DNA of 14,038 bases. Origin: Promethearchaeota archaeon (GTDB lineage Archaea > Asgardarchaeota > Lokiarchaeia > Sigyniarchaeales > SOKP01). The stretch lies in contig JBHLNT010000107.1 of NCBI GenBank assembly GCA_048941265.1, positions 1 through 14,038 on the forward strand. Reading direction: 5' to 3'. The position numbers and the translations under genes are program-made. Numbering within the stretch: the first letter of the stretch is position 1; every line of letters starts with the position of its first letter. Under the pieces are notes generated by a model. That model saw only the letters and a program-made list of their open reading frames with translations. It did no database searches and had not been told where the DNA came from. Shown here piece by piece: positions 1,077-14,038 of this stretch.

Positions 1077-1124
1077 AATAATATTTATTAGCGTGAATAG
1101 CAAATAGTGTATAAATCCACTATT
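1077..1124 (+). promoter_or_regulatory. Archaeal TATA-like element followed by a 22-bp quasi-palindromic operator candidate
   Basis: AATAATATTTATTA at 1077-1090, then AATAGTGTAT-AA-ATCCACTATT at 1103-1124 (10-bp arms, one mismatch), positioned over the expected transcription start. Confidence 0.6.
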
Positions 1125-1127
1125 AAT

Positions 1128-2297
1128 ATGAAAACAAAGAAAATTATGATGTTTTCTACTCCAAAAAAAATTGGGAATTTAGAAATCAAGAATCGCTTTG
1201 TGAGATCTGCTACTTTCGAATCTCTAGCTTCCGATAGCTATGTTAATGATAAACTTATAAATTTTTATAAAGCCCTGGCTGAGGGAGGTGTCGGATTAAT
1301 TATTACTGGAGCTGTTGCTGTACAAAAAAATGCGAGAATAAGTGAAATGCAAATGGGAATATTTAAAGATGATTTTATTTCTGGTTTGAAAAAAATTGCC
1401 AATATTGCGCATAAATATGGTAATGAGTGTAAAATTAGCCTGCAACTGCATCATGCCGGAACTCAAAATTTCGTGGAGAAAGATCGTGTAGCACCTTCAG
1501 CAGTTTACAATCCATTTCTTAAAAAATCACCTCGTGAAATGACTCTTGATGAAATTAAAGAGACAATAGAAGCTTTTGCACAAGGAATAAGAAGAACTAA
1601 AGAAGCAGGATTTGATGCAGTACAGCTACATGGAGGACATGGATGGCTTTTAAGTGCATTTCTCTCTCCATACACAAATATTAGAACAGATGAATATGGT
1701 GGAAATACAGAAAATAGGGTTAGAATTGTTGAAGAAATTTATAAGAGAGCAATAGAGTTGGTGGGAACCAATTTTCCGATTATGATTAAATATAACTCTG
1801 ATGATTTTATGGAAGGTGGGATGGATCTAAATGAAGGTAAAAAAATTGCTGATAGACTCTCAAAATTAGGATTTGTTGCTCTTGAAATTAGTGGTGGTAT
1901 GTGGGCCGCTGTAACTCGAAGCGAAGAAGAGCTAGGCTGGAAAATTGCAATGTTACCAGAGTCTCGAATTAGTATTGGAACTGTGAATGAACCTGCTTAT
2001 AATGTACCATATGCTAAGGAAATCAAGAAAGTAGTAGATATTCCAATAATAGCAATTGGAGGAATAAATTCCCTTGTACTAGCAGAGAATATTTTAGAGG
2101 AGGGAAGTGCTGATTTCATTGCATTGGCTAGACCTTTCATTAGAGAACCAAACCTTCCTAATAGATGGTTAAAAGGAGAAAGTGACGCTGGAGTTAAATG
2201 TATTTATTGCAATACTTGTATAGGAAGCCTGTCGAAAGGTATCCGATGTGTTACTAAAGAGAAAGAAGAACGATTAGCTAAAAGAAAAGCAAAATAG
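1128..2297 (+). CDS. NADH:flavin oxidoreductase / Old Yellow Enzyme family protein with a C-terminal Cys (Fe-S) motif
   Basis: Motifs KNRFVRSAT, GGVGLIITG, QLHHAG, AGFDAVQLHGGHGWLLSAFLSP, NIRTDEYGG..ENRVR, GGI, ADFIALARPFIREP, and C-terminal CIYCNTC-x9-C. Start placed at ATG 1128 (1146/1149 are alternatives) rather than GTG 1107, which lies inside the palindrome. Confidence 0.93.
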   Translation: MKTKKIMMFSTPKKIGNLEIKNRFVRSATFESLASDSYVNDKLINFYKALAEGGVGLIITGAVAVQKNARISEMQMGIFKDDFISGLKKIANIAHKYGNECKISLQLHHAGTQNFVEKDRVAPSAVYNPFLKKSPREMTLDEIKETIEAFAQGIRRTKEAGFDAVQLHGGHGWLLSAFLSPYTNIRTDEYGGNTENRVRIVEEIYKRAIELVGTNFPIMIKYNSDDFMEGGMDLNEGKKIADRLSKLGFVALEISGGMWAAVTRSEEELGWKIAMLPESRISIGTVNEPAYNVPYAKEIKKVVDIPIIAIGGINSLVLAENILEEGSADFIALARPFIREPNLPNRWLKGESDAGVKCIYCNTCIGSLSKGIRCVTKEKEERLAKRKAK

Positions 2298-2352
2298 AAT
2301 TATTAATTTAAAACTAGTATTTAAACTTTACAATCATTATAAAACGAGTAAA

Positions 2353-2426
2353 AATAATATTTATTAAGATTTAAGGCAAAGTAATATATAAATATATAAA
2401 TCCACTATTGATGTAAAAATAAAAGA
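2353..2426 (+). promoter_or_regulatory. Promoter region homologous to the one upstream of the OYE gene
   Basis: Identical AATAATATTTATTA (2353-2366) and identical TATAAATCCACTATT (2395-2409), with similar downstream sequence; 8-bp tandem repeat AATATATA x2 at 2383-2398. Confidence 0.6.
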
Positions 2427-2463
2427 TTAAAATTAATTAAATTAAAGGAATGAGTTGTAAAAA

Positions 2464-3522
2464 ATGGCATTAGAAGAAGAATTAGATCAAGACGCAATTG
2501 AGGAGGCAAAAAGGCAATGGCATGGTGTACCCTTAAGCTTTGACCAAGAAAAAATGATTAAATGGTATACCCATGAGAGGGGAGGTGCCAGAGGAGGAGC
2601 GGACGTATTTTACCTTATGTTTGGTATAACCTATAATTGTCAACTTAAATGTCCCCACTGTTGTGTAGGTAATTATGAAAATGAGCCACCTAGAGAACTT
2701 ACAACAGAAGAGATTAAGGATGTATTAGATCAATCAGCTAAAGCTTTCGCGATCAACTTTTTTGGTGGAGAACCAACCTTGAGAGAAGACTTAATGGAAC
2801 TAATAAAATATGCTTCAGAGAGATCTGTATATGTATTCTGTGATACAAACGGAATAAAAATTACAAAGGATTATGCAAGACAATTGAAGGATAACGGCTT
2901 AGAGATTTTATATGTAAGCATTGATAGTCCCCATCCGGAAATACATGATGAATTACGCGGAATGAAAGGACTATTTGATATAGCAACGCAGGGTATAAAA
3001 AATGCACTTGAAGTGGGATTAAATTGTCAACTTTCCACTTATATAACAAAGGAGAATCTTGCAAATGGAAACTTTGAACGAGTAATTCAGTTGGCTCGAG
3101 ATCTTAATGCAACAGGGGTAAGATATTTATTACCTACACCGACCGGGAGATGGTTATATAAACTTGATGTAATGTTGACACCCGAAGAAAAGAAAAAAGT
3201 TAGAAAAATTGCCAAATTCCCTTACGTTGTTAGAGACTTCTATTTTCAAAATCAAACTTCAAGTCAATGCGCTGGTATGTCAGGTCATGCGTATTTTTAT
3301 ATCTCACCGTATGGAGATGTTATGCCATGCTGTTTTATACCGCTTACTTTCGGAAATATCAGAGAAGAACCTCTGAAAACAATTTTGGAAAGAATGTGGG
3401 GGCACGGAATGTTCAGTGAAGATTGGGTGAATAGAGAATGTCCAATGTTAAACGCGGAATATAGAAAAAAATATATAGATTCAATTCCCAGTGGAACAAA
3501 GTTACCGTTTAGAATATGTTAA
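2464..3522 (+). CDS. Radical SAM enzyme with a C-terminal Twitch/SPASM-type auxiliary Fe-S domain
   Basis: CQLKCPHC (CxxxCxxC), FGGEPTLR, DTNG, VSIDS...HDELRG; C-terminal QCAG...YISPYGDVMPCC...FGNIRE..L..I...ECPM. Confidence 0.92.
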   Translation: MALEEELDQDAIEEAKRQWHGVPLSFDQEKMIKWYTHERGGARGGADVFYLMFGITYNCQLKCPHCCVGNYENEPPRELTTEEIKDVLDQSAKAFAINFFGGEPTLREDLMELIKYASERSVYVFCDTNGIKITKDYARQLKDNGLEILYVSIDSPHPEIHDELRGMKGLFDIATQGIKNALEVGLNCQLSTYITKENLANGNFERVIQLARDLNATGVRYLLPTPTGRWLYKLDVMLTPEEKKKVRKIAKFPYVVRDFYFQNQTSSQCAGMSGHAYFYISPYGDVMPCCFIPLTFGNIREEPLKTILERMWGHGMFSEDWVNRECPMLNAEYRKKYIDSIPSGTKLPFRIC

Positions 3523-3723: not shown

Positions 3724-4488
3724 ATGGAAGAATTACATTCGGATAAAAGTATTTATAAGAAATTTTTCTATATAAGCATTTCTTTGTTAATTGTAGGAAT
3801 TATAGTTTTATCTATATTCCTATGGTTTGGAACTCAAGAAATTTCATTTAGCTTAGGGTATATTTTTTCGCACGCCCCCGGACTTGGTTTATTTTTGTTT
3901 CTTTTTATCGTTGTGTTTTTTTTTGGAATAGGAATAGCTAGTCTAACAATATACATTATTAAACCAGGAGGAGTTGAAAAAAGAGAATTTAGGAGATTAC
4001 AAGAAAAGCAAGCTAAATTTACTGGAAAATATCCAAGTCAACAACCGACTCCTAAATCAGTAGGATTTTCAGTGCAAAAAGGTATTTCTAAAAAGGAAAA
4101 TCTCTTAATTTTTATGAGCTATGCTACTAAGGATGCAGAATTATTTAAAATTTCTGATATAGCAAATAAGTTAACTAACTATAATGAAATTAATGATGTA
4201 CTTTATTGGCAAGAAGATGCTGGAAAAAGCATTGTTGAATATATGGAAGAAAATCTCAATAAATGCGATCTCTTATTATTATTCTGTTCTCCTAACTCAT
4301 TGCATTCTAGTGCTGTAAAGAAAGAATATGAAGCCGCACAATTTATGGGAAAGATAATTATCCCAGTTTTTACAGAAATTAGTCATGTTCCAACCTTGTT
4401 ACAGCCTGAACGTGGTGTTAGATTTGATATGTTTGATTTACATAAAACTATAGAAGAAATTTATAAGTTAATTAAAAAAAAAATCTAA
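3724..4488 (+). CDS. Membrane-anchored TIR-domain protein (2 N-terminal TM helices + C-terminal TIR domain)
   Basis: Two hydrophobic segments (FFYISISLLIVGIIVLSIFLWFG; LGLFLFLFIVVFFFGIGIASLTIYII). TIR pattern from about 4105: IFMSYATKD, LYWQED, CDLLLLFCSPNSLHSSAVKKEY (Glu at 4324-4326), IIPVF, VPTLL. Confidence 0.87.
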   Translation: MEELHSDKSIYKKFFYISISLLIVGIIVLSIFLWFGTQEISFSLGYIFSHAPGLGLFLFLFIVVFFFGIGIASLTIYIIKPGGVEKREFRRLQEKQAKFTGKYPSQQPTPKSVGFSVQKGISKKENLLIFMSYATKDAELFKISDIANKLTNYNEINDVLYWQEDAGKSIVEYMEENLNKCDLLLLFCSPNSLHSSAVKKEYEAAQFMGKIIIPVFTEISHVPTLLQPERGVRFDMFDLHKTIEEIYKLIKKKI

Positions 4489-7090: not shown

Positions 7091-8257
7091 TTATTTATGA
7101 ACTTTTCCAGAAGTATCTTCAACTGTGATATCTTCTTCTTTAATAACCTCTTCTTTAATCGGTTTGGATTCATCAATTTGAGTATTGCATACCCAACATA
7201 AATTTTCTAAATTGCTCAACGCTTCAGCACATTTAAAACAATAAATAGCATCGCATTTCGGACACATGTAATTAAGTCTTGACACTTTCGCTTTACATAC
7301 CAGGCAAATTTTTTGTTCTTTATGAAATGTAACTTCCTCCTCTGTTATATGAGAAGGTTTTACAAATGCACTTAGATAATCGCGATCATCATCTTTCTGT
7401 TGTAGAATTTCCTTTAAAACTTTCGGAAGTTTTGATATATTCACAATACGCGTAATTGAGTAAAAACAATTCAATGAAGTTATAAAAATTCCAAGTATGG
7501 CAAAAAATAATACAGTAATGAACATATAATAGACTATGAGGAATAGAACATATATGAATAACATTGTAATGTTGAATGTTATGAAGATTTCCCACACTTT
7601 TTTTGATTTTAAGAGTTTTTCTGGATTAAAAATTGTGGGTATTAAGCACATAAGCACTCCGACTATTATAAATAGTGAGGGCAATGCCGGGTGGATAATC
7701 TTTAAATTTTTTATCTCAGCGGCCTCCAAGGAAACTCCGGAAACCATTAAAATCAACCCCGTTATTATAGGAATTAGGATTGCTTGGGTTTCTTTTTGTA
7801 GATTTTTTGTGAACCATAACACTCCTCCTAATCCCATAACCAATAGAATTCCTAAAATTATGTAGAAAAAAGGTCTCGCACTATCCAATGGTAATATTAC
7901 AATTATAAATAAGGAGATTAGATTTATTGCGGTTATGATGTACTTAGTTTTTTTTAAAATACGCTCAAAAAAGAAAAAAGCAGCGGTTATTCCAATAAAT
8001 AAACTAATATATCCTAATTTTACCATTAACTCGAATGGGGGGTATGTATTCTCATAATCCCCGTAATATTCATGTCCGGAGTAGGAACCAATTACTAGGA
8101 AATCACTAAAATAGAAAATAATTCTTTGAAAGGCAAGACCAAAGAAGAAACTGGCAAATCCTAACATTAGTAATTTTTCAGTAGATGTCCCTCTTTTATA
8201 TGCAAGATTACAGAAGTGAATACCTGCAAAGAGTAATACGTATATTGAACTAACCAT
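7091..8257 (-). CDS. Polytopic (~9 TM) membrane protein with a C-terminal 8-Cys double zinc finger (C4C4 RING-like)
   Basis: About nine hydrophobic helices followed by ITEEEVTFHKEQKI-CLVC-x10-CPKC-x4-CFKC-x10-CWVC (7187-7306). The frame stays open upstream to 8326, so the start is uncertain. Confidence 0.82.
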   Translation of the reverse strand: MVSSIYVLLFAGIHFCNLAYKRGTSTEKLLMLGFASFFFGLAFQRIIFYFSDFLVIGSYSGHEYYGDYENTYPPFELMVKLGYISLFIGITAAFFFFERILKKTKYIITAINLISLFIIVILPLDSARPFFYIILGILLVMGLGGVLWFTKNLQKETQAILIPIITGLILMVSGVSLEAAEIKNLKIIHPALPSLFIIVGVLMCLIPTIFNPEKLLKSKKVWEIFITFNITMLFIYVLFLIVYYMFITVLFFAILGIFITSLNCFYSITRIVNISKLPKVLKEILQQKDDDRDYLSAFVKPSHITEEEVTFHKEQKICLVCKAKVSRLNYMCPKCDAIYCFKCAEALSNLENLCWVCNTQIDESKPIKEEVIKEEDITVEDTSGKVHK

Positions 8258-8467: not shown

Positions 8468-11431
8468 TTAATTCGAATATTCGTGGCGTTCTATCAATTC
8501 TAATTGCATATCCTTAGTCAATTTAGTGAAATACGCATTATAACCCGAAACTCTCACTAAAAGCCATCGATAATCTTCAGGATTTTTCATGGCTTCTCTC
8601 ATCATATCTGAAGATACCACATTAAACTGCCATTGCATACCTCCTAAATCGAAGAAACTCTGTACATAGCTTGTAAAATGGTTCAACGTCTCAGGATGTG
8701 AATCCCCAGGATGAGGAACTAGTTTCACGTTGAATGAAGCGTTATTTGCCATTTTTAAATGATCTAATGCGGCAACACTTTGGATACTCGGTAGTAAAAT
8801 ATCTGTTGTCCCTGCAGCAGGTGTTAATCCCGGAGTTAATGATTTACCTTTCTTTCTTCCAGATGGTAGAGCTCCAGTAAGCATCCCCCATCCACAATGG
8901 TAAGAAATAGACCAATATCCCACAAGATACTTCCCACCCCTGTAATTAGGTGTAGCATTATATAGCTCATAGCAGTAATCAACTAAATCTTGCGCTAATT
9001 CTATAGTTCCATTTTCACCGGAGCCAAATTTTGGAACCCTTTCTATTCTCTTTAATAAGTTTTCATGACCATTACTAAAATCATCATCGATTGCGTTTAA
9101 TAATTTAGTGAAATCAATCTCGTTATTTTTATAAATTAGATCTTTCACTACAAGAAGGTTATCAACGACATCTGTAAGAGCAACCAGAGCGACACCTGAC
9201 GTATTATATATTGCTCCACCTTGAATAAGATCCTTTCCCTTTTCTAAAGGGCCATCATAGAAAGAAGACAATAAGGGAGTAGGATGGATATATTCATGAG
9301 CCTTACCTAAATAATTATTAATTTCAATTGATTTGTCCACTAAATATTTGAGCTGGATTTTATAAGCATTATAGAAATCTTCAAATGTTGGGAATACTGT
9401 TCTAACATCACCGGTTTCAGGTCCTATTTTATTTCCTGATAGAGGACTAACTCCATTATATAAGGTCATCTCAAGCGGTGCGATCAGGTTTAACAGCATG
9501 CAATTTGTGTGCCCGTAATGCCTTCCGACTATTGTAGGCTCAACGCAACCTGTGGCAGCCCAATCCCTCGCATCTTCAATGGAAAAACCCTCATGCACTA
9601 AAGCTTCAATCATAGTCTTATCATTATGAATAGACGGTGAGGCACCCATATTAATATTTACTTCGCATAAACGTCTTAAGTATTCTTTCGAATTAATATC
9701 CGGATAATATCTGGCGTTCATATTAGGATCTTGGAAACCCAGCATTTCATTTGTCTTTAAAATAAGAAAAGTCATGTCATTTACGGCATTATTGCCCTCC
9801 CGATCTACTCCTCCGACAGTTACAGTATCATCCGATGAGCTACCCCCGAATAATTTCCAACCTACATTTGGAATACAGGGGTCATGATCATTAATTCTTA
9901 AGAATAAGGATCCTACAAGTTCAATCGTTCTTCTTATAATTGCTTCTTTTTCTGGATCATTTGAAGCTTTAGAAATATCACTCATAAAGAATGGCTGCAA
10001 CATTTGATCTAATCTTCCAATCGATAAAGCGGAATTTGCATTTTCACAATGAAGACAAACAAAACTGGTCCAAATTGATTGAACTGCTTCATGAATTGTT
10101 TCTGCGGGTTTAGCCGGGACTTTAGCGCACATTCTGGAGATTTCTTTTAATTCATCGATACGTTTTACCTGTTCTGGATCATTTGGGTCGAAAGTATCGG
10201 CAATTCTTAGAGCCTCTTCGCTTAAGTGCTTAGAATAAGCCAGAGCACCTTCAATTGCTATTTGTATAGCTTTATAGAAATTCTTTTTCTTTTCTGAATC
10301 GGCCTCTTTCTCCATTTTAGCAGCTTTATCTTTTATATTTTCTAACCCCTCGTTAAGAATTTTTGGAAAGCCGGGTACAGTATGAGAAATTGCATTATTC
10401 TTCATCATGAAGTAAAATAACCAGCTTTCTTCTAATTGTTGCGATATTGGATTATTGTACTTTTTACGACAATATTCTCTTACGTTTCTATCCATCCAAT
10501 ATGGAAAAACTTCAAGACTTAAAATATCAGCATCATTTTGTGAAAGGTCATTCGGATTAAGTTCTCGATTACATATAGTATTTAATTCCGGCCATAGCGC
10601 AGTCCCTATAAGTTCGGGATAAATTGGAATACCAACCTCTTTTGATGTGGTGGAACCTGCTATTAAGTGTTTTTCGTGAATTATTGGTCTTTTGTTTGTC
10701 ATTATATGGTTTACAGCCATAGCCTGCCTTAATTCTGGATCAAAAGGATTACCTGCTTTATCAACCTCAAATCCGTTTTCTCGATGAAATTCAGTTAATA
10801 ATACAGGTCTTTCTACACAAACTGCAGGCTTTAAAGCAAAACGTCTATTTTTTAAATATTTTAAACGCGGAAAATCGCTTATAGAATATTTGGCGAGATA
10901 AGGATCTTCTAAAACTTGTACTTTATCAATTTTACGATTTAAACTCTCGTTTTTAAGCTTTCGGCCATGCTCATCCTCGTCTAAATCTTTAATTGGATAA
11001 ATCATTTGATTTTCGGGACCTTTATATTTAATCTTTTTAGCACCCAAAACAAGTGAAGTGAGGTAAGAAAATTTCGTCAGGTAAGACATGTTTCCGGTAT
11101 ATCCCATTTCATTCGTGAGAAGGTAATCAAGAGACTCCTCGGCACTTTTATCATAGAGGTTGGCTAATGTTTCTTTGTCTTTATAATAAATCGTAACGTT
11201 CGGATCATCAATTTTGCCCTCGCTAAAGGTCATTTTCCCATTATTAAATATCAGGTAACAATAAACCTTATCGTCAAGAGTTTTAAACTGGTATTTTGCA
11301 TTAAAGATAAAACCAGTTTTTTCATTATATATTTCTCTTCGCAATTTTCTGCGAGTATCGAATACCATTCCGAGCAAATCTAAGGATTCTTTAAATTTTT
11401 CTATTTTTTGATCGACTGTTAATTCTGTCAT
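8468..11431 (-). CDS. Glycyl radical enzyme (eliminase-type, PFL superfamily) with an N-terminal SCP2-like domain
   Basis: Glycyl radical loop LLVRVSGYNAYF (RVSGY at 8540-8554); single-Cys loop ATGCVEP (GCVEP at 9536-9550); SIGRLDQ, TVGGVD, PKFG, GALPSGR, QFNVVS. Residues ~30-130 (KYQFKT..VYCYLIFNNGKMTFSEGKIDDPNVTIYYKD...MGYTGNMSYLTKF) fit an SCP2 sterol-carrier pattern. AAGGT SD-like motif upstream. Confidence 0.93.
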   Translation of the reverse strand: MTELTVDQKIEKFKESLDLLGMVFDTRRKLRREIYNEKTGFIFNAKYQFKTLDDKVYCYLIFNNGKMTFSEGKIDDPNVTIYYKDKETLANLYDKSAEESLDYLLTNEMGYTGNMSYLTKFSYLTSLVLGAKKIKYKGPENQMIYPIKDLDEDEHGRKLKNESLNRKIDKVQVLEDPYLAKYSISDFPRLKYLKNRRFALKPAVCVERPVLLTEFHRENGFEVDKAGNPFDPELRQAMAVNHIMTNKRPIIHEKHLIAGSTTSKEVGIPIYPELIGTALWPELNTICNRELNPNDLSQNDADILSLEVFPYWMDRNVREYCRKKYNNPISQQLEESWLFYFMMKNNAISHTVPGFPKILNEGLENIKDKAAKMEKEADSEKKKNFYKAIQIAIEGALAYSKHLSEEALRIADTFDPNDPEQVKRIDELKEISRMCAKVPAKPAETIHEAVQSIWTSFVCLHCENANSALSIGRLDQMLQPFFMSDISKASNDPEKEAIIRRTIELVGSLFLRINDHDPCIPNVGWKLFGGSSSDDTVTVGGVDREGNNAVNDMTFLILKTNEMLGFQDPNMNARYYPDINSKEYLRRLCEVNINMGASPSIHNDKTMIEALVHEGFSIEDARDWAATGCVEPTIVGRHYGHTNCMLLNLIAPLEMTLYNGVSPLSGNKIGPETGDVRTVFPTFEDFYNAYKIQLKYLVDKSIEINNYLGKAHEYIHPTPLLSSFYDGPLEKGKDLIQGGAIYNTSGVALVALTDVVDNLLVVKDLIYKNNEIDFTKLLNAIDDDFSNGHENLLKRIERVPKFGSGENGTIELAQDLVDYCYELYNATPNYRGGKYLVGYWSISYHCGWGMLTGALPSGRKKGKSLTPGLTPAAGTTDILLPSIQSVAALDHLKMANNASFNVKLVPHPGDSHPETLNHFTSYVQSFFDLGGMQWQFNVVSSDMMREAMKNPEDYRWLLVRVSGYNAYFTKLTKDMQLELIERHEYSN

Positions 11432-11514
11432 TCTTAAAATACCTTTTAATAAATTTCTATAACTTGGAATTTTTTAATTCTTGTAAATTGGGAATATTAT
11501 AAAAGTTTTGTTTC

Positions 11515-11564
11515 AGATTATATAAATATTATTTTTACCTTGTAAAAGAAAAATACTATAATCT
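11515..11564. promoter_or_regulatory. Nested ~50-bp imperfect inverted repeat in the GRE/esterase divergent promoter
   Basis: Outer arms AGATTATA (11515-11522) / TATAATCT (11557-11564) and inner arms TTTTAC (11533-11538) / GTAAAA (11542-11547) share a centre at about 11540. Confidence 0.45.
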
Positions 11565-11633
11565 CCTTTACTAATAAAATATTAAATATCCTAATACAAT
11601 TTTAAAAGTTAACTAAATTAGTGATTAAACAAA

Positions 11634-12623
11634 ATGACATTACTAATAAGTCCAAAATTACGTTCAGATGTGAAAAAGATAATGGAACTTAGAAATTCTT
11701 ATGCAGAAATAGCAACAGAAGAATTTTTAAGTAAAAAAAAGAGTCAAGGGATCAAAATTACTGAAAAAACGTTGCTAAGTGATCGGAGCATAGCTTTGGA
11801 ATATCAACGCTATTTATCAGCATTCACTGCCCAAAAAAGAAATGTTTTAATTCCTAAAACAACAGTATTTGAGCGAATCAATACTGATGGAGTACCTGCT
11901 GAATGGATTATTACTCCTAATGCTGAAAAAAAAAAAGTACTTTTTCACCTATTCGGAGGAGGATATGTTATGGGAACAATTGAAACTAGAAGATGGTTAC
12001 CGTTTCTTATGGCTCGTGCATCGAAAATACGTGCCTTAATTATTGGATATCGATTAGCTCCTGAACATCCTTTTCCAGCCGCACTAGAAGACTCCATAAC
12101 AGCATATCGTTGGGTCTTATCTACAGGAATTTCCTCCCAAAATATAGTACTTAGCGGTGATTCAGCAGGTGGAGCCTTAGTAGTATCAACTCTAATAAGA
12201 TTACGTGAATTAAATCTCCCATTACCCGCTGGAGCTGTGCTTCTATCACCTTGGACGGATTTGGCATGTACGGGAGGATCTTTGGAAAGCAATGCAGAGT
12301 ATGAACCTGGTATCACAATTCCAGTATTAAGGGCGATGGCGAAGCTATATTACAAAGATAAGAGCCCAAAAGATCCTCTGATCTCACCGCTTTATGCTAA
12401 TTTAGAAAAGCTTCCACCGATGCTTATTCATGTAGGAAACATAGAATCATTAAGGGATGATTCGGTAAGATTAGCAGATCGCGCCAAAGCCGCTGGAATT
12501 AATGTAGAATTAAAAATCTGGGAAGATATGACCCATGTGTTTCAAAATTATTATAATGATATTCCTGAAAGTAATCAATCTATTGAATATATTAGTATAT
12601 TTATTCAAAAAGTATTAAATTAA
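11634..12623 (+). CDS. Alpha/beta hydrolase, hormone-sensitive lipase (family IV) esterase/lipase
   Basis: GDSAGG nucleophile elbow (GDSAG at 12156-12170), YRLAPEHPFPAALED, LLSPWTDL, ISPLYA, LPPMLIHVGNIESLRDDS, WEDMTHVF. The oxyanion motif reads FGGGY. GTGA SD-like motif at 11621-11624. Confidence 0.93.
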   Translation: MTLLISPKLRSDVKKIMELRNSYAEIATEEFLSKKKSQGIKITEKTLLSDRSIALEYQRYLSAFTAQKRNVLIPKTTVFERINTDGVPAEWIITPNAEKKKVLFHLFGGGYVMGTIETRRWLPFLMARASKIRALIIGYRLAPEHPFPAALEDSITAYRWVLSTGISSQNIVLSGDSAGGALVVSTLIRLRELNLPLPAGAVLLSPWTDLACTGGSLESNAEYEPGITIPVLRAMAKLYYKDKSPKDPLISPLYANLEKLPPMLIHVGNIESLRDDSVRLADRAKAAGINVELKIWEDMTHVFQNYYNDIPESNQSIEYISIFIQKVLN

Positions 12624-12630
12624 TAATTAT

Positions 12631-12646
12631 TTTCTATTCTTTTTTT
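12631..12646 (+). terminator. Oligo-T terminator candidate after the esterase
   Basis: TTTCTATTCTTTTTTT with a T7 run at 12640-12646, just after the stop codon. Confidence 0.45.
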
Positions 12647-12700
12647 GATTTAAATTTAAATTTTTAATATTCATTCTTATTTTCCATTGAGTTAAATCCT

Positions 12701-12713
12701 AAAGATTTATATA
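12701..12713 (+). promoter_or_regulatory. BRE/TATA promoter of the AOR gene
   Basis: Purine-rich AAAGA followed by the canonical archaeal TATA box TTTATATA (12706-12713); AGGAG SD at 12771-12775. Confidence 0.55.
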
Positions 12714-12785
12714 TACTGCCTTCTAAAATTTGATACAATTATCCATTTAATTTGTTTAAAAATAAAAAAAAGGAGTATAAATAAT

Positions 12786-14038
12786 ATGCCTAACGGATAT
12801 ATGGGAAAAATTTTATGGGTAAATCTTTCTGATGAGGCTTTTAAGGAAGAACAATTATCCGATGAGATTTATCGTCAATTTTTTGGAGGATATGGCTTAG
12901 CAACCAGATTAATCTATGAGAATTTACCGGCAAAAGTTGATCCTCTTAGTCCAGATGCGTTATTAGGATTCTTTCCAGGATTGCTAACTGGTACAGTAGC
13001 TCCTTTATCAGGACGTTTCATGGTCGCTGGAAAGTCCCCTTTAACTGGAGGGTGGGGAGATGCCAACTGTGGGGGTTATTTTGGTCCAGAAGTTAAAAAT
13101 TGTGGCTATGATGCGATCTTAGTTAAGGGAGCAGCAACGGGCCCTAAACTTATTGTTATTATTGATGACGATAAGCAAATTTTAGATGCTTCGGATTTAT
13201 GGGGGCTAGATGTTGTTCAAATTGAAAATAAATTGGCAGAAAAATATGGAAGGGTTCAAGTTGCAAGTATAGGACAATCTGGAGAAAAATTATCTCTCAT
13301 ATCTGGAATAGTAAATGATAAGGGAAGAATTGCAGGAAGATCTGGTTTGGGTGCAGTCATGGGATCTAAAAAATTAAAAGCCATTGTCTTAAAGGGAAAA
13401 AAGGATATAAGCCTTGCTGACAAAGAAAGTGTTCTTAATCTTACAAAAGAGTATAATGATTCTATTGCTAAAGGAGGAGGCCTAGTAACAGGTTTTAAAA
13501 CGTTTGGCACGACTATGGGAAATACATTTTGCGCCCAAACTGGAGATACACCGATTAAAAATTGGGGGGGCACATCTGTAGAAGATTTTCCTGTTGAGAG
13601 ATATAATAATCTAGCGGGTATGGAAATAAATAAATATAGAGAGAAACCTTATGGATGTTTTTCTTGTCCAGTTCGGTGTGGCTCTATCATGAAACTACCT
13701 GAATTAGGACTTGAAGAAACCCATCGCCCAGAATATGAAACCTGTGCTAGCTTTGGGCATCTTCTGCTCAATGATGATCTCATGTCTATCTTTATGATAA
13801 ATGATTTATGTAATAGGGCGGGAATAGATACTATTTCTGCAGGTGGATCAGTTGCTTTTGCAATAGAATGTTATGAAAATGGGATTCTAAATAAAGTTGA
13901 CACCGACGGGCTTGAATTATCTTGGGGAAATTCTACTGCAATTATTGACTTAACTAAAAAGATAATAAATCGAGAAGGGATCGGAGATTTATTAGCGGAT
14001 GGTTGCAAAATTGCTTCCGAAAAGATTGGAAAAGGTAG
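12786..14038 (+). CDS. aor: Tungsten-dependent aldehyde:ferredoxin oxidoreductase family protein, 3'-truncated by the window edge
   Basis: Absent from the ORF track because it has no stop in the window. Manual translation from ATG 12786: MPNGYMGKILWVNLS...GGYGLA...KSPLTGGWGDANCGG...GYDAI...IGQSGE...GRSGLGAVMGSKKLKAI...CFSCPVRC...PEYET...NRAGIDTIS...WGN...REGIGDLLADG. These are AOR pterin- and Fe-S-binding signatures. Confidence 0.95.
   Translation, partial: MPNGYMGKILWVNLSDEAFKEEQLSDEIYRQFFGGYGLATRLIYENLPAKVDPLSPDALLGFFPGLLTGTVAPLSGRFMVAGKSPLTGGWGDANCGGYFGPEVKNCGYDAILVKGAATGPKLIVIIDDDKQILDASDLWGLDVVQIENKLAEKYGRVQVASIGQSGEKLSLISGIVNDKGRIAGRSGLGAVMGSKKLKAIVLKGKKDISLADKESVLNLTKEYNDSIAKGGGLVTGFKTFGTTMGNTFCAQTGDTPIKNWGGTSVEDFPVERYNNLAGMEINKYREKPYGCFSCPVRCGSIMKLPELGLEETHRPEYETCASFGHLLLNDDLMSIFMINDLCNRAGIDTISAGGSVAFAIECYENGILNKVDTDGLELSWGNSTAIIDLTKKIINREGIGDLLADGCKIASEKIGKG

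Follow-up and report, generated by a model that had tools for sequence, protein, structure and literature searches.

Glycyl radical enzymes (GREs) of the PFL-like type whose function has been characterised are all bacterial, according to the sections of the 2026 review by Imrich et al. (PMC13450708) that we draw on throughout, and the 1,2-eliminases among them are described there as making aldehydes that are passed to a dedicated oxidoreductase. The GRE small subunits named in these sections are HiPIP-like and rubredoxin-like only, and the term 'sterol carrier' is not mentioned in them. Here we describe an archaeal locus in which a GRE with an N-terminal SCP2-fold domain lies close to a tungsten-type aldehyde:ferredoxin oxidoreductase (AOR). 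The window analysed is the whole of a 14,038-bp contig (JBHLNT010000107.1, here C73) of a 5.0-Mb Asgard metagenome-assembled genome (MAG), ~30% G+C, 91% complete and 4.8% contaminated, whose named relatives are of Promethearchaeia/Lokiarchaeota type. Its stretch 8468–14038 holds three open reading frames (ORFs), a GRE on the minus strand followed by an HSL-type esterase and the AOR on the plus strand (Table 1), which an earlier note on this DNA had read as one candidate anaerobic lipid-breakdown module running from ester to aldehyde to acid. The order of the three genes given there agrees with the ORFs and with their Pfam families (PFL-like/Gly_radical, Abhydrolase_3, AFOR_N/AFOR_C), and since contigs from two other public runs, one of them from a different study, bridge both the GRE-spacer-esterase and the esterase-AOR junctions, it is not an assembly artefact. 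No RNA data set was among those listed for this stretch. We would give an even chance to a narrower reading, in which GRE and AOR alone form the core of the region as a two-enzyme pair, the former performing a radical elimination on a hydrophobic hydroxylated substrate and the latter receiving the resulting aldehyde.

The GRE carries the features that define its superfamily, namely a PFL-like PF02901 barrel, a C-terminal PF01228 domain and an RVxG motif (RVSGY, residues 960–964). The comparison covered 116 loci that encode relatives of the GRE, 52 from species-representative genomes and 64 from metagenomes, which were searched with the window's own proteins. His350, Cys629 (the catalytic cysteine of the Cys loop, in GCVEP) and Glu631 are invariant in all 99 aligned family members, as is Gly963 in the 93 sequences long enough to include the position. 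A HMMER alignment places His350, Cys629 and Glu631 opposite His164, Cys433 and Glu435 of glycerol dehydratase (GD), which serve as general acid, radical carrier and general base, respectively (PMC13450708, section 5.6). The window GRE therefore has both residues expected of an eliminase, Cys-x-Glu in the form C629-V-E631 and an equivalent of GD His164, and the former points to carbinol-radical chemistry. Its best solved relatives are A. fulgidus PFL2 (2f3o, 368 bits, E 7e-109) and GD (1r8w, 365 bits, E 8e-108), followed by HypD (352 bits) and CutC (333 bits); scores are 264–329 bits against the isomerases YbiW and PflD, 120–240 bits against decarboxylases, and low against MASS (200 bits), BSS (170 bits) and E. 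coli PFL (87 bits). No NCBIfam equivalog cut-off is reached (TIGR01774, 519 against 678 bits; HypD, 416 against 1100; CutC, 396 against 1050). The clade to which the enzyme belongs, here called SCP2-GRE, spans Asgard archaea, Desulfobacterales, one Atribacteria MAG and myxobacteria; of the 151 genomes of the class that were sampled, 55 encode a member. A literature search with subscription-only papers and supplements outside its scope returned no characterisation of this clade and no description of an SCP2-linked GRE. The family member of Desulfatibacillum aliphaticivorans (protein P0134) is 493 residues long, against 988 in other strains, and its gene may be truncated or split. A homologue is also encoded by Desulfatibacillum alkenivorans DSM 16219, which is in culture.

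The SCP2 label that the earlier note had attached to the GRE fails by sequence, as the Pfam SCP2 profile stays below its gathering score on the N-terminus (12.9 against 21.3 bits, E 0.14), but is upheld by fold. An AlphaFold2 model of residues 1–185, built on a 27-sequence alignment, has a pLDDT of ~85–95 over residues 1–130 and below 50 over residues 132–185, where D176, P177 and L179 are invariant in the 27 sequences. All 31 Foldseek matches to the PDB at E ≤ 0.001, among the matches listed, are SCP2-fold proteins, including A. fulgidus AF1534, the C-terminal domain of alkylsulfatase SdsA1, UbiJ-SCP2, human SCP-2L and insect SCP2. The Foldseek probability is 1.00 and the target-normalised TM-score is 0.60–0.65 against AF1534, UbiJ-SCP2 and human SCP-2L, so that the predicted structure confirms, at the level of fold, an SCP2 domain at the GRE N-terminus. 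In 13 more distant loci the GRE is 812–907 residues long, lacks the domain and is immediately followed by a gene for a protein of 161–196 residues; this standalone protein matches the N-termini of fused GREs by tblastn (E 1e-7 to 1e-12), and the copy in L065 scores 16.9 bits (E 0.008) against Pfam SCP2. As the fold, the split loci and the tblastn homology agree, this GRE clade has the SCP2 module as a conserved partner, whether fused or as a small subunit.

The window AOR, open at the contig end, comprises AFOR_N and AFOR_C domains and the motif CFSCPVRC at residue 291 within its 417 residues; its orthologue in L017 is full-length, 89% identical and closest to P. furiosus AOR (1aor, E 3.5e-89). 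An AOR lies within 10 kb of the GRE in 37 of the 116 related loci, or in 38 of the 110 loci, window included, whose GRE ORF is at least 450 residues long, and is the commonest non-activase enzyme neighbour of the GRE. In 24 of these loci no other gene separates the AOR from the GRE/SCP2/activase unit, and in 12 it lies downstream on the same strand. Such adjacent AORs are found in Desulfobacterales (L020, L023 and L101), and GRE-SCP2-AOR-activase operons occur in L065, the Atribacteria MAG, and L129. Enrichment around SCP2-GRE homologues, which the earlier note had raised for esterase and AOR alike, is thus seen for AOR and not for the esterase, present in 1 of 116 loci. When GREs were merged by single linkage at ≥85% identity, AOR was within 5 kb in 9 of the 39 resulting groups and in 8 of the 24 groups with at least 8 kb of flank, where ~4% would be expected by chance (2–16 AOR copies in 3–5.5-Mb genomes, 31 genomes).

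The linkage is also specific to particular AORs. In a tree of 35 GRE-locus AORs, the window AOR and 11 long AOR paralogues of the window genome, 34 of the 35 GRE-locus AORs fall into two clades, and 10 of the 11 paralogues lie outside both. Clade A (SH-aLRT 100) contains the window AOR with those of L017, L019, L040, L075, L081, L065 and L129; clade B (SH-aLRT 98) contains 26 AORs, four from Desulfobacterales and 22 from Loki-type archaea. Across the 151 genomes, clade-B AOR (46 genomes) and SCP2-GRE (55) occur together in 36, AOR only in 10, GRE only in 19 and neither in 86 (odds ratio 16); the corresponding numbers for clade A are 35, 26, 20 and 70 (odds ratio 4.7). Among the sampled loci, clade B (e.g. 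L052 14555–16360 and L020 7296–9146) consists only of GRE-linked copies and mirrors the cross-domain distribution of the GRE, which suggests that GRE and clade-B AOR were transferred together.

No GRE activase is encoded on the window contig, while one is adjacent to the GRE in 66 of the 116 related loci. Four activases of the genome exceed the TIGR02494 cut-off, and three of these lie on contigs that carry another GRE; the fourth (G000:C154:34244-35104; L157 9233-10126) is an orphan, with no GRE on its contig and with unrelated glycosylation/glycosyltransferase and housekeeping genes as neighbours. This C154 activase is 60–67% identical to seven archaeal activases located directly downstream of SCP2-GRE clade members elsewhere, to which the other three are 35–44% identical; two bacterial SCP2-GRE-linked activases show lower identity to all four and leave the ranking unchanged. 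On sequence grounds, the C154 enzyme is the orthologue of these activases and the predicted cognate activase of the SCP2-GRE. The radical SAM/SPASM gene at 2464–3522 of the window was considered for this role and rejected, as its product resembles heme/PQQ-type SPASM maturases and not TIGR02494.

Gene order in relatives bears on this separation. The common Loki-type arrangement is Ldh2-Ldh2-CDF-FNR-FADox / GRE-activase-(AOR) ... DUF1848-FAD oxidase-MTRI, and the block of Ldh2, CDF, PaaE-like reductase and CrtI-like FAD oxidoreductase flanks the GRE in 24–27 loci. On contig C271 of the window genome (L158 7808-18401) this block stands side by side with the DUF1848...IF-2B-like genes and the GRE slot between them is empty, indicating that GRE and activase moved out in this lineage. 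As the block persists on C271 without the GRE, its association with the GRE elsewhere is probably conserved synteny, and we do not count its members as pathway partners. The window GRE, out of its ancestral slot, is still found beside a clade-A AOR, from which it would appear that the AOR neighbourhood survived relocation. A 267-residue fragment 59% identical to clade-B AOR is also present in this genome, at the edge of the 2.7-kb contig C141. Elsewhere on C271 (L158 2533-5557) a LuxE-like acyl-protein synthetase gene adjoins one for a LuxC-like acyl-CoA reductase; in bacteria such a pair produces fatty aldehydes, and its presence in an archaeon is unusual.

What has been observed for the GRE/AOR pair is the membership of both enzymes in their families, the SCP2 fold, the invariance of the catalytic residues, and an AOR linkage that recurs and is clade-specific. 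The proposed reaction sequence would begin with the orphan C154 activase installing the radical on Gly963 and the SCP2 module bringing in a hydrophobic, hydroxyl-bearing substrate. A thiyl radical on Cys629 would then take a hydrogen from the carbinol carbon, Glu631 would deprotonate the hydroxyl and His350 would protonate the leaving group (OH, OR or similar) on the neighbouring carbon, so that an aldehyde would be released. The adjacent P. furiosus-type AOR could oxidise this aldehyde to the acid, reducing ferredoxin. We infer this chemistry from the residues and gene neighbours, and also infer that the product is an aldehyde and the GRE substrate a lipid. A bolder form of the proposal, which we think quite unlikely, makes the SCP2-GRE an O2-independent lipid head-group lyase that cuts the C-O bond next to the carbinol in glycerol ethers or long-chain vicinal diols, with AOR trapping the aldehyde; archaeal isoprenoid ethers or bacterial alkylglycerols might serve as substrates, their chains held by the SCP2 module. 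Cleavage of glycerol-lipid ethers by such an enzyme would be chemically plausible by analogy, because YbiW and PflD cleave ring ethers.

A number of observations weigh against the two-enzyme pair, and several of them would suit an arrangement of chance neighbours, in which the GRE works by itself or with partners not linked to it, and the window AOR, one of 15 paralogues, is close to it by accident. No AOR is found in the sequence covered at 72 of the 110 loci, many of them short, nor within 5 kb in 30 of the 39 merged groups, and L042, with 10-kb flanks on both sides of the GRE, has none. The excess over chance in the merged groups (binomial P 2e-5 at 4% expectation, 1e-3 at 7%) is overstated, because related genomes and loci are not independent. 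Clade A, to which the window AOR belongs, is less strongly associated with the GRE than clade B: clade-A-like AORs occur in 61 of the 151 genomes, mostly unlinked to a GRE, and in 26 of them no GRE is detected. In G110 and G030, of the same genus, the closest orthologue of the window AOR is on a different contig from the GRE. The window AOR is itself separated from the GRE by the esterase and two AT-rich spacers, in a lineage where the surroundings of the GRE have been heavily rearranged and the activase is no longer linked. Chance proximity nevertheless seems unlikely to us, since the AOR-x-GRE order is repeated in L017, AORs of the same clade pair directly with the GRE in L073, L081 and L075, and clade A includes the operonic AORs of L065 and L129. 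Moreover, none of the eight other GRE-bearing contigs of the genome carries an AOR.

The remaining points against the pair concern the chemistry. GD positions H281, S282 and D447, which we take to be substrate contacts, are S, A and N in the window GRE, so the pocket differs from that of GD and the substrate would not be glycerol-like in detail. As Cys-x-Glu is also found in the isomerases YbiW, PflD and HplG and in the decarboxylase HPAD (PMC13450708), the motif alone does not prove elimination. Both observations would be compatible with some other radical reaction on a lipid-like or CoA-linked substrate, either a YbiW/PflD-type isomerisation to a ketone or a decarboxylation, with AOR and a crotonase acting downstream or in parallel. 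Enoyl-CoA hydratase genes do adjoin the GRE in 13 loci; they fit a fatty product entering beta-oxidation, and fit other schemes equally. We regard such chemistry as distinctly unlikely, given the low similarity to decarboxylases and given that AOR is the enzyme most often found beside the GRE after the activase, within the operon itself in L065 and L129.

Asgard GREs have also been annotated as alkyl- or benzylsuccinate synthases by Zhang et al. 2021 (PMC8163825), and for the window this would mean that the GRE adds an SCP2-held hydrocarbon to fumarate. A hydrophobic carrier domain would go well with alkane substrates, the family is present in Desulfatibacillum, an alkane and alkene degrader, and the Cys loop has a single cysteine. 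The scores, however, place the window GRE far closer to eliminases (333–368 bits, PFL2 included) than to MASS or BSS, and both the Glu of Cys-x-Glu and the equivalent of GD His164 are invariant. Known X-succinate synthases need HiPIP-like Fe-S small subunits (PMC13450708, sections as above); beside the GRE in the window there is no plausible small Cys-rich ORF, and among ORFs of at least 80 residues in the other loci the sole recurrent small partner, seen in the split loci, is SCP2-like. The scores and the lack of such an ORF in the window argue against this label for the SCP2-GRE clade, and as it would also leave the AOR linkage unexplained, we consider a succinate synthase highly improbable.

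The esterase raises a different issue. In the full chain of the earlier note it would act on an ester lipid and free an alcohol or diol, which the SCP2-GRE would convert to an aldehyde for oxidation by the AOR, the three genes forming one module. The genes are indeed adjacent, in an order kept in independent contigs, and the esterase looks intact, with GDSAG at residue 175 and HLFGGG at 105, the GxSxG nucleophile elbow and the HGG-type oxyanion motif. It matches PF07859 Abhydrolase_3 (E 1.5e-52) and remains below NCBIfam cut-offs, the closest model being the GESAG-type HSL subfamily (262.6 against 430 bits). Other hydrolases are found near some relatives of the GRE (Abhydrolase_1 in 8 loci; HAD hydrolases in L017 and L020). 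This esterase, however, is absent from all 52 species-representative loci and present in 1 of the 64 metagenome loci. That locus, L069, has a GRE 91% identical to that of the window, and its contig edge preserves the first 23 esterase residues, starting divergently from the GRE. Upstream of the GRE, the other closest relatives have different genes: L017 one of URO-D/MtaA-like type, L071 one for an M1 peptidase, and L070 small unknown ORFs. In L017, whose GRE is 92% identical, the URO-D/MtaA-like gene (8481-9680) takes the esterase's place between AOR and GRE, and in L073 and L081 a window-type AOR is directly divergent from the GRE with nothing between them.

Esterase homologues give the same picture. 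The best in 150 genomes of the class are 46–60% identical, and of the six best, examined with up to 20 kb of sequence, four yielded the full stretch and two were short contigs; none of the four (50–56% identity) has a GRE or AOR within ~10 kb. The window genome itself holds three strong and six weaker Abhydrolase_3 matches. Taken together, the single occurrence among 116 loci, the varied upstream genes and the homologues lacking GRE and AOR point to the esterase having entered between AOR and GRE in this lineage specifically, and it appears to be an intact, cytoplasmic-looking HSL enzyme tied to the GRE/AOR pair by position alone. Of the ester-to-aldehyde-to-acid chain, then, the GRE-AOR half is supported by recurrent adjacency in archaea and bacteria, two AOR clades and co-occurrence, the esterase half is not supported, and the chain as a whole is in our judgement very unlikely. 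A URO-D/MtaA-like gene adjoins the esterase homologue in two of the six cases (L134 73-2084; L155 10015-13198), the same family as the L017 replacement; we note this recurrence as an unexplained coincidence.

The divergent spacer between GRE and esterase measures 202 bp, as first reported, and its best inverted repeat is AGATTATA/TATAATCT at 11515–11564. This repeat, which had also been remarked on at first reading, does not exceed chance: 263 of 300 dinucleotide-preserving shuffles equal or exceed its score. In L069, the sole relative sharing the esterase, the right arm is not preserved, and we therefore reject the repeat as an operator. The left arm is overlapped by the TATA-like element, which is nearly invariant in all five close loci (window, L069, L017, L071 and L070) and is kept despite their differing upstream genes, so that the GRE seems to have a promoter of its own, independent of the upstream gene. 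A conserved ACTTTTAT stretch follows downstream of the element in the same five loci, and a 5' leader of ~55–60 nt before the GRE might carry regulation.

The window contains further genes outside this region. A multi-pass membrane protein of 388 residues with a C-terminal CxxC...CxxC zinc-ribbon tail, lacking any Pfam or NCBIfam match, is encoded at 7091–8257 (minus strand), directly downstream of the GRE. It occupies this position only in the closest relatives L069 and L115, and with 2 of 116 loci it was rejected as a GRE partner. At 1107–3522 (plus strand) an Old Yellow Enzyme-type flavin oxidoreductase gene is followed by that of the radical SAM/SPASM protein mentioned above, which matches heme b synthase AhbD and NirJ best, though below threshold; the same two genes are paired in L069, L071 and L130 as well. 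At 3724–4488 (plus strand) lies a possible defence or NADase gene, whose 254-residue product ends in a TIR domain (TIR_2, E 4e-13; weak ThsB_TIR) and has an N-terminal half with no family assignment.

Table 1. Features of the GRE-esterase-AOR region, in window coordinates.
Feature	Position	Strand	Basis
Glycyl radical enzyme (GRE), 987 residues, SCP2-GRE clade	8468..11431	-	ORF; Pfam PFL-like E 9e-152, Gly_radical E 2.5e-23
N-terminal SCP2-fold domain (predicted), GRE residues 1-130	11042..11431	-	AlphaFold2 model and Foldseek
Low-confidence linker, GRE residues 131-185, ending in conserved DPYL motif	10877..11041	-	pLDDT and alignment
GRE barrel and glycyl radical domain	8525..10864	-	Pfam residue ranges 190-848 (PFL-like) and 866-969 (Gly_radical)
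GRE His350	10382-10384	-	Family alignment
GRE Cys629	9545-9547	-	GCVEP motif at 628
GRE Glu631	9539-9541	-	Family alignment
GRE Gly963	8543-8545	-	RVSGY motif at 960-964
Divergent GRE/esterase spacer, 202 bp, 84% A+T	11432..11633	.	
TATA-like promoter element AAAATAATATTTATATAAT, conserved, ~87 nt upstream of GRE start	11517..11535	-	
HSL-family (family IV) esterase, 329 residues, apparently intact	11634..12623	+	Abhydrolase_3 E 1.5e-52
Tungsten-type AOR, first 417 of ~612 residues, open at contig end	12786..14036	+	AFOR_N E 5.7e-73, AFOR_C E 1.6e-57

The hypothesis for the window is thus narrowed from three genes to two, GRE and AOR, and the missing activase is named. The SCP2-GRE clade would differ from known GREs in being common in Asgard archaea and shared with sulfate reducers, in its lipid-carrier module and in its tie to a tungsten AOR. 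If the enzyme acts on lipids, it would provide an O2-free entry into membrane-lipid or other hydrophobic carbon in sediments, and published 'alkyl/benzylsuccinate synthase' labels on Asgard GREs would be corrected. Were it a head-group lyase, ether-lipid catabolism would gain its first anaerobic route; among archaeal PFL-like GREs the enzyme would be the first to be characterised, and among GREs in general the first to have a lipid-carrier subunit.

Among known systems, the GRE 1,2-eliminases (GD 1R8W, propanediol dehydratase 5I2A, CutC and HypD) share with the window enzyme the PFL-like barrel, the glycyl radical domain, Cys-x-Glu and the GD-His164 equivalent, and are among its best-scoring solved relatives (333–365 bits). 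Compared with them, the window GRE has ~185 extra N-terminal residues including the SCP2 fold, falls below all equivalog cut-offs and differs at GD positions 281, 282 and 447, and its partner is a tungsten AOR and not a CoA-acylating aldehyde dehydrogenase. No microcompartment genes are among the annotated GRE neighbours, although no systematic search was aimed at them. The best solved relative, A. fulgidus PFL2/PflD (2F3O), is likewise archaeal, and its function is debated (PMC13450708, section 7, in the text drawn on here); the two align from query residue 228 and chain residue 37 onwards, and 2F3O has no counterpart of the SCP2 module. The E. coli isomerases YbiW and PflD share the Cys-x-Glu loop and are described as cleaving a C-O ether bond beside a deprotonated carbinol radical (PMC13450708, section 5.7), but they use soluble sugar phosphates, lack an SCP2 module and score lower. 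X-succinate synthases (BSS, MASS) are, as is proposed for the window enzyme, GREs acting on hydrophobic substrates; they have accessory subunits, which gate a hydrophobic channel (PMC13450708); these subunits are HiPIP- or rubredoxin-like Fe proteins, as against SCP2 here, and the similarity is much lower. For the AOR, P. furiosus 1AOR is the closest solved relative of the full-length L017 orthologue, and AFOR_N, AFOR_C and the CxxCxxxC motif are all present in the window copy up to the point where the contig ends. The SCP2 module has its parallels in SdsA1, human MFE-2 SCP-2L and UbiJ, in which the same fold is fused to, or partnered with, an enzyme handling a long alkyl or isoprenoid chain, whereas its partner in the present locus is a glycyl radical enzyme.

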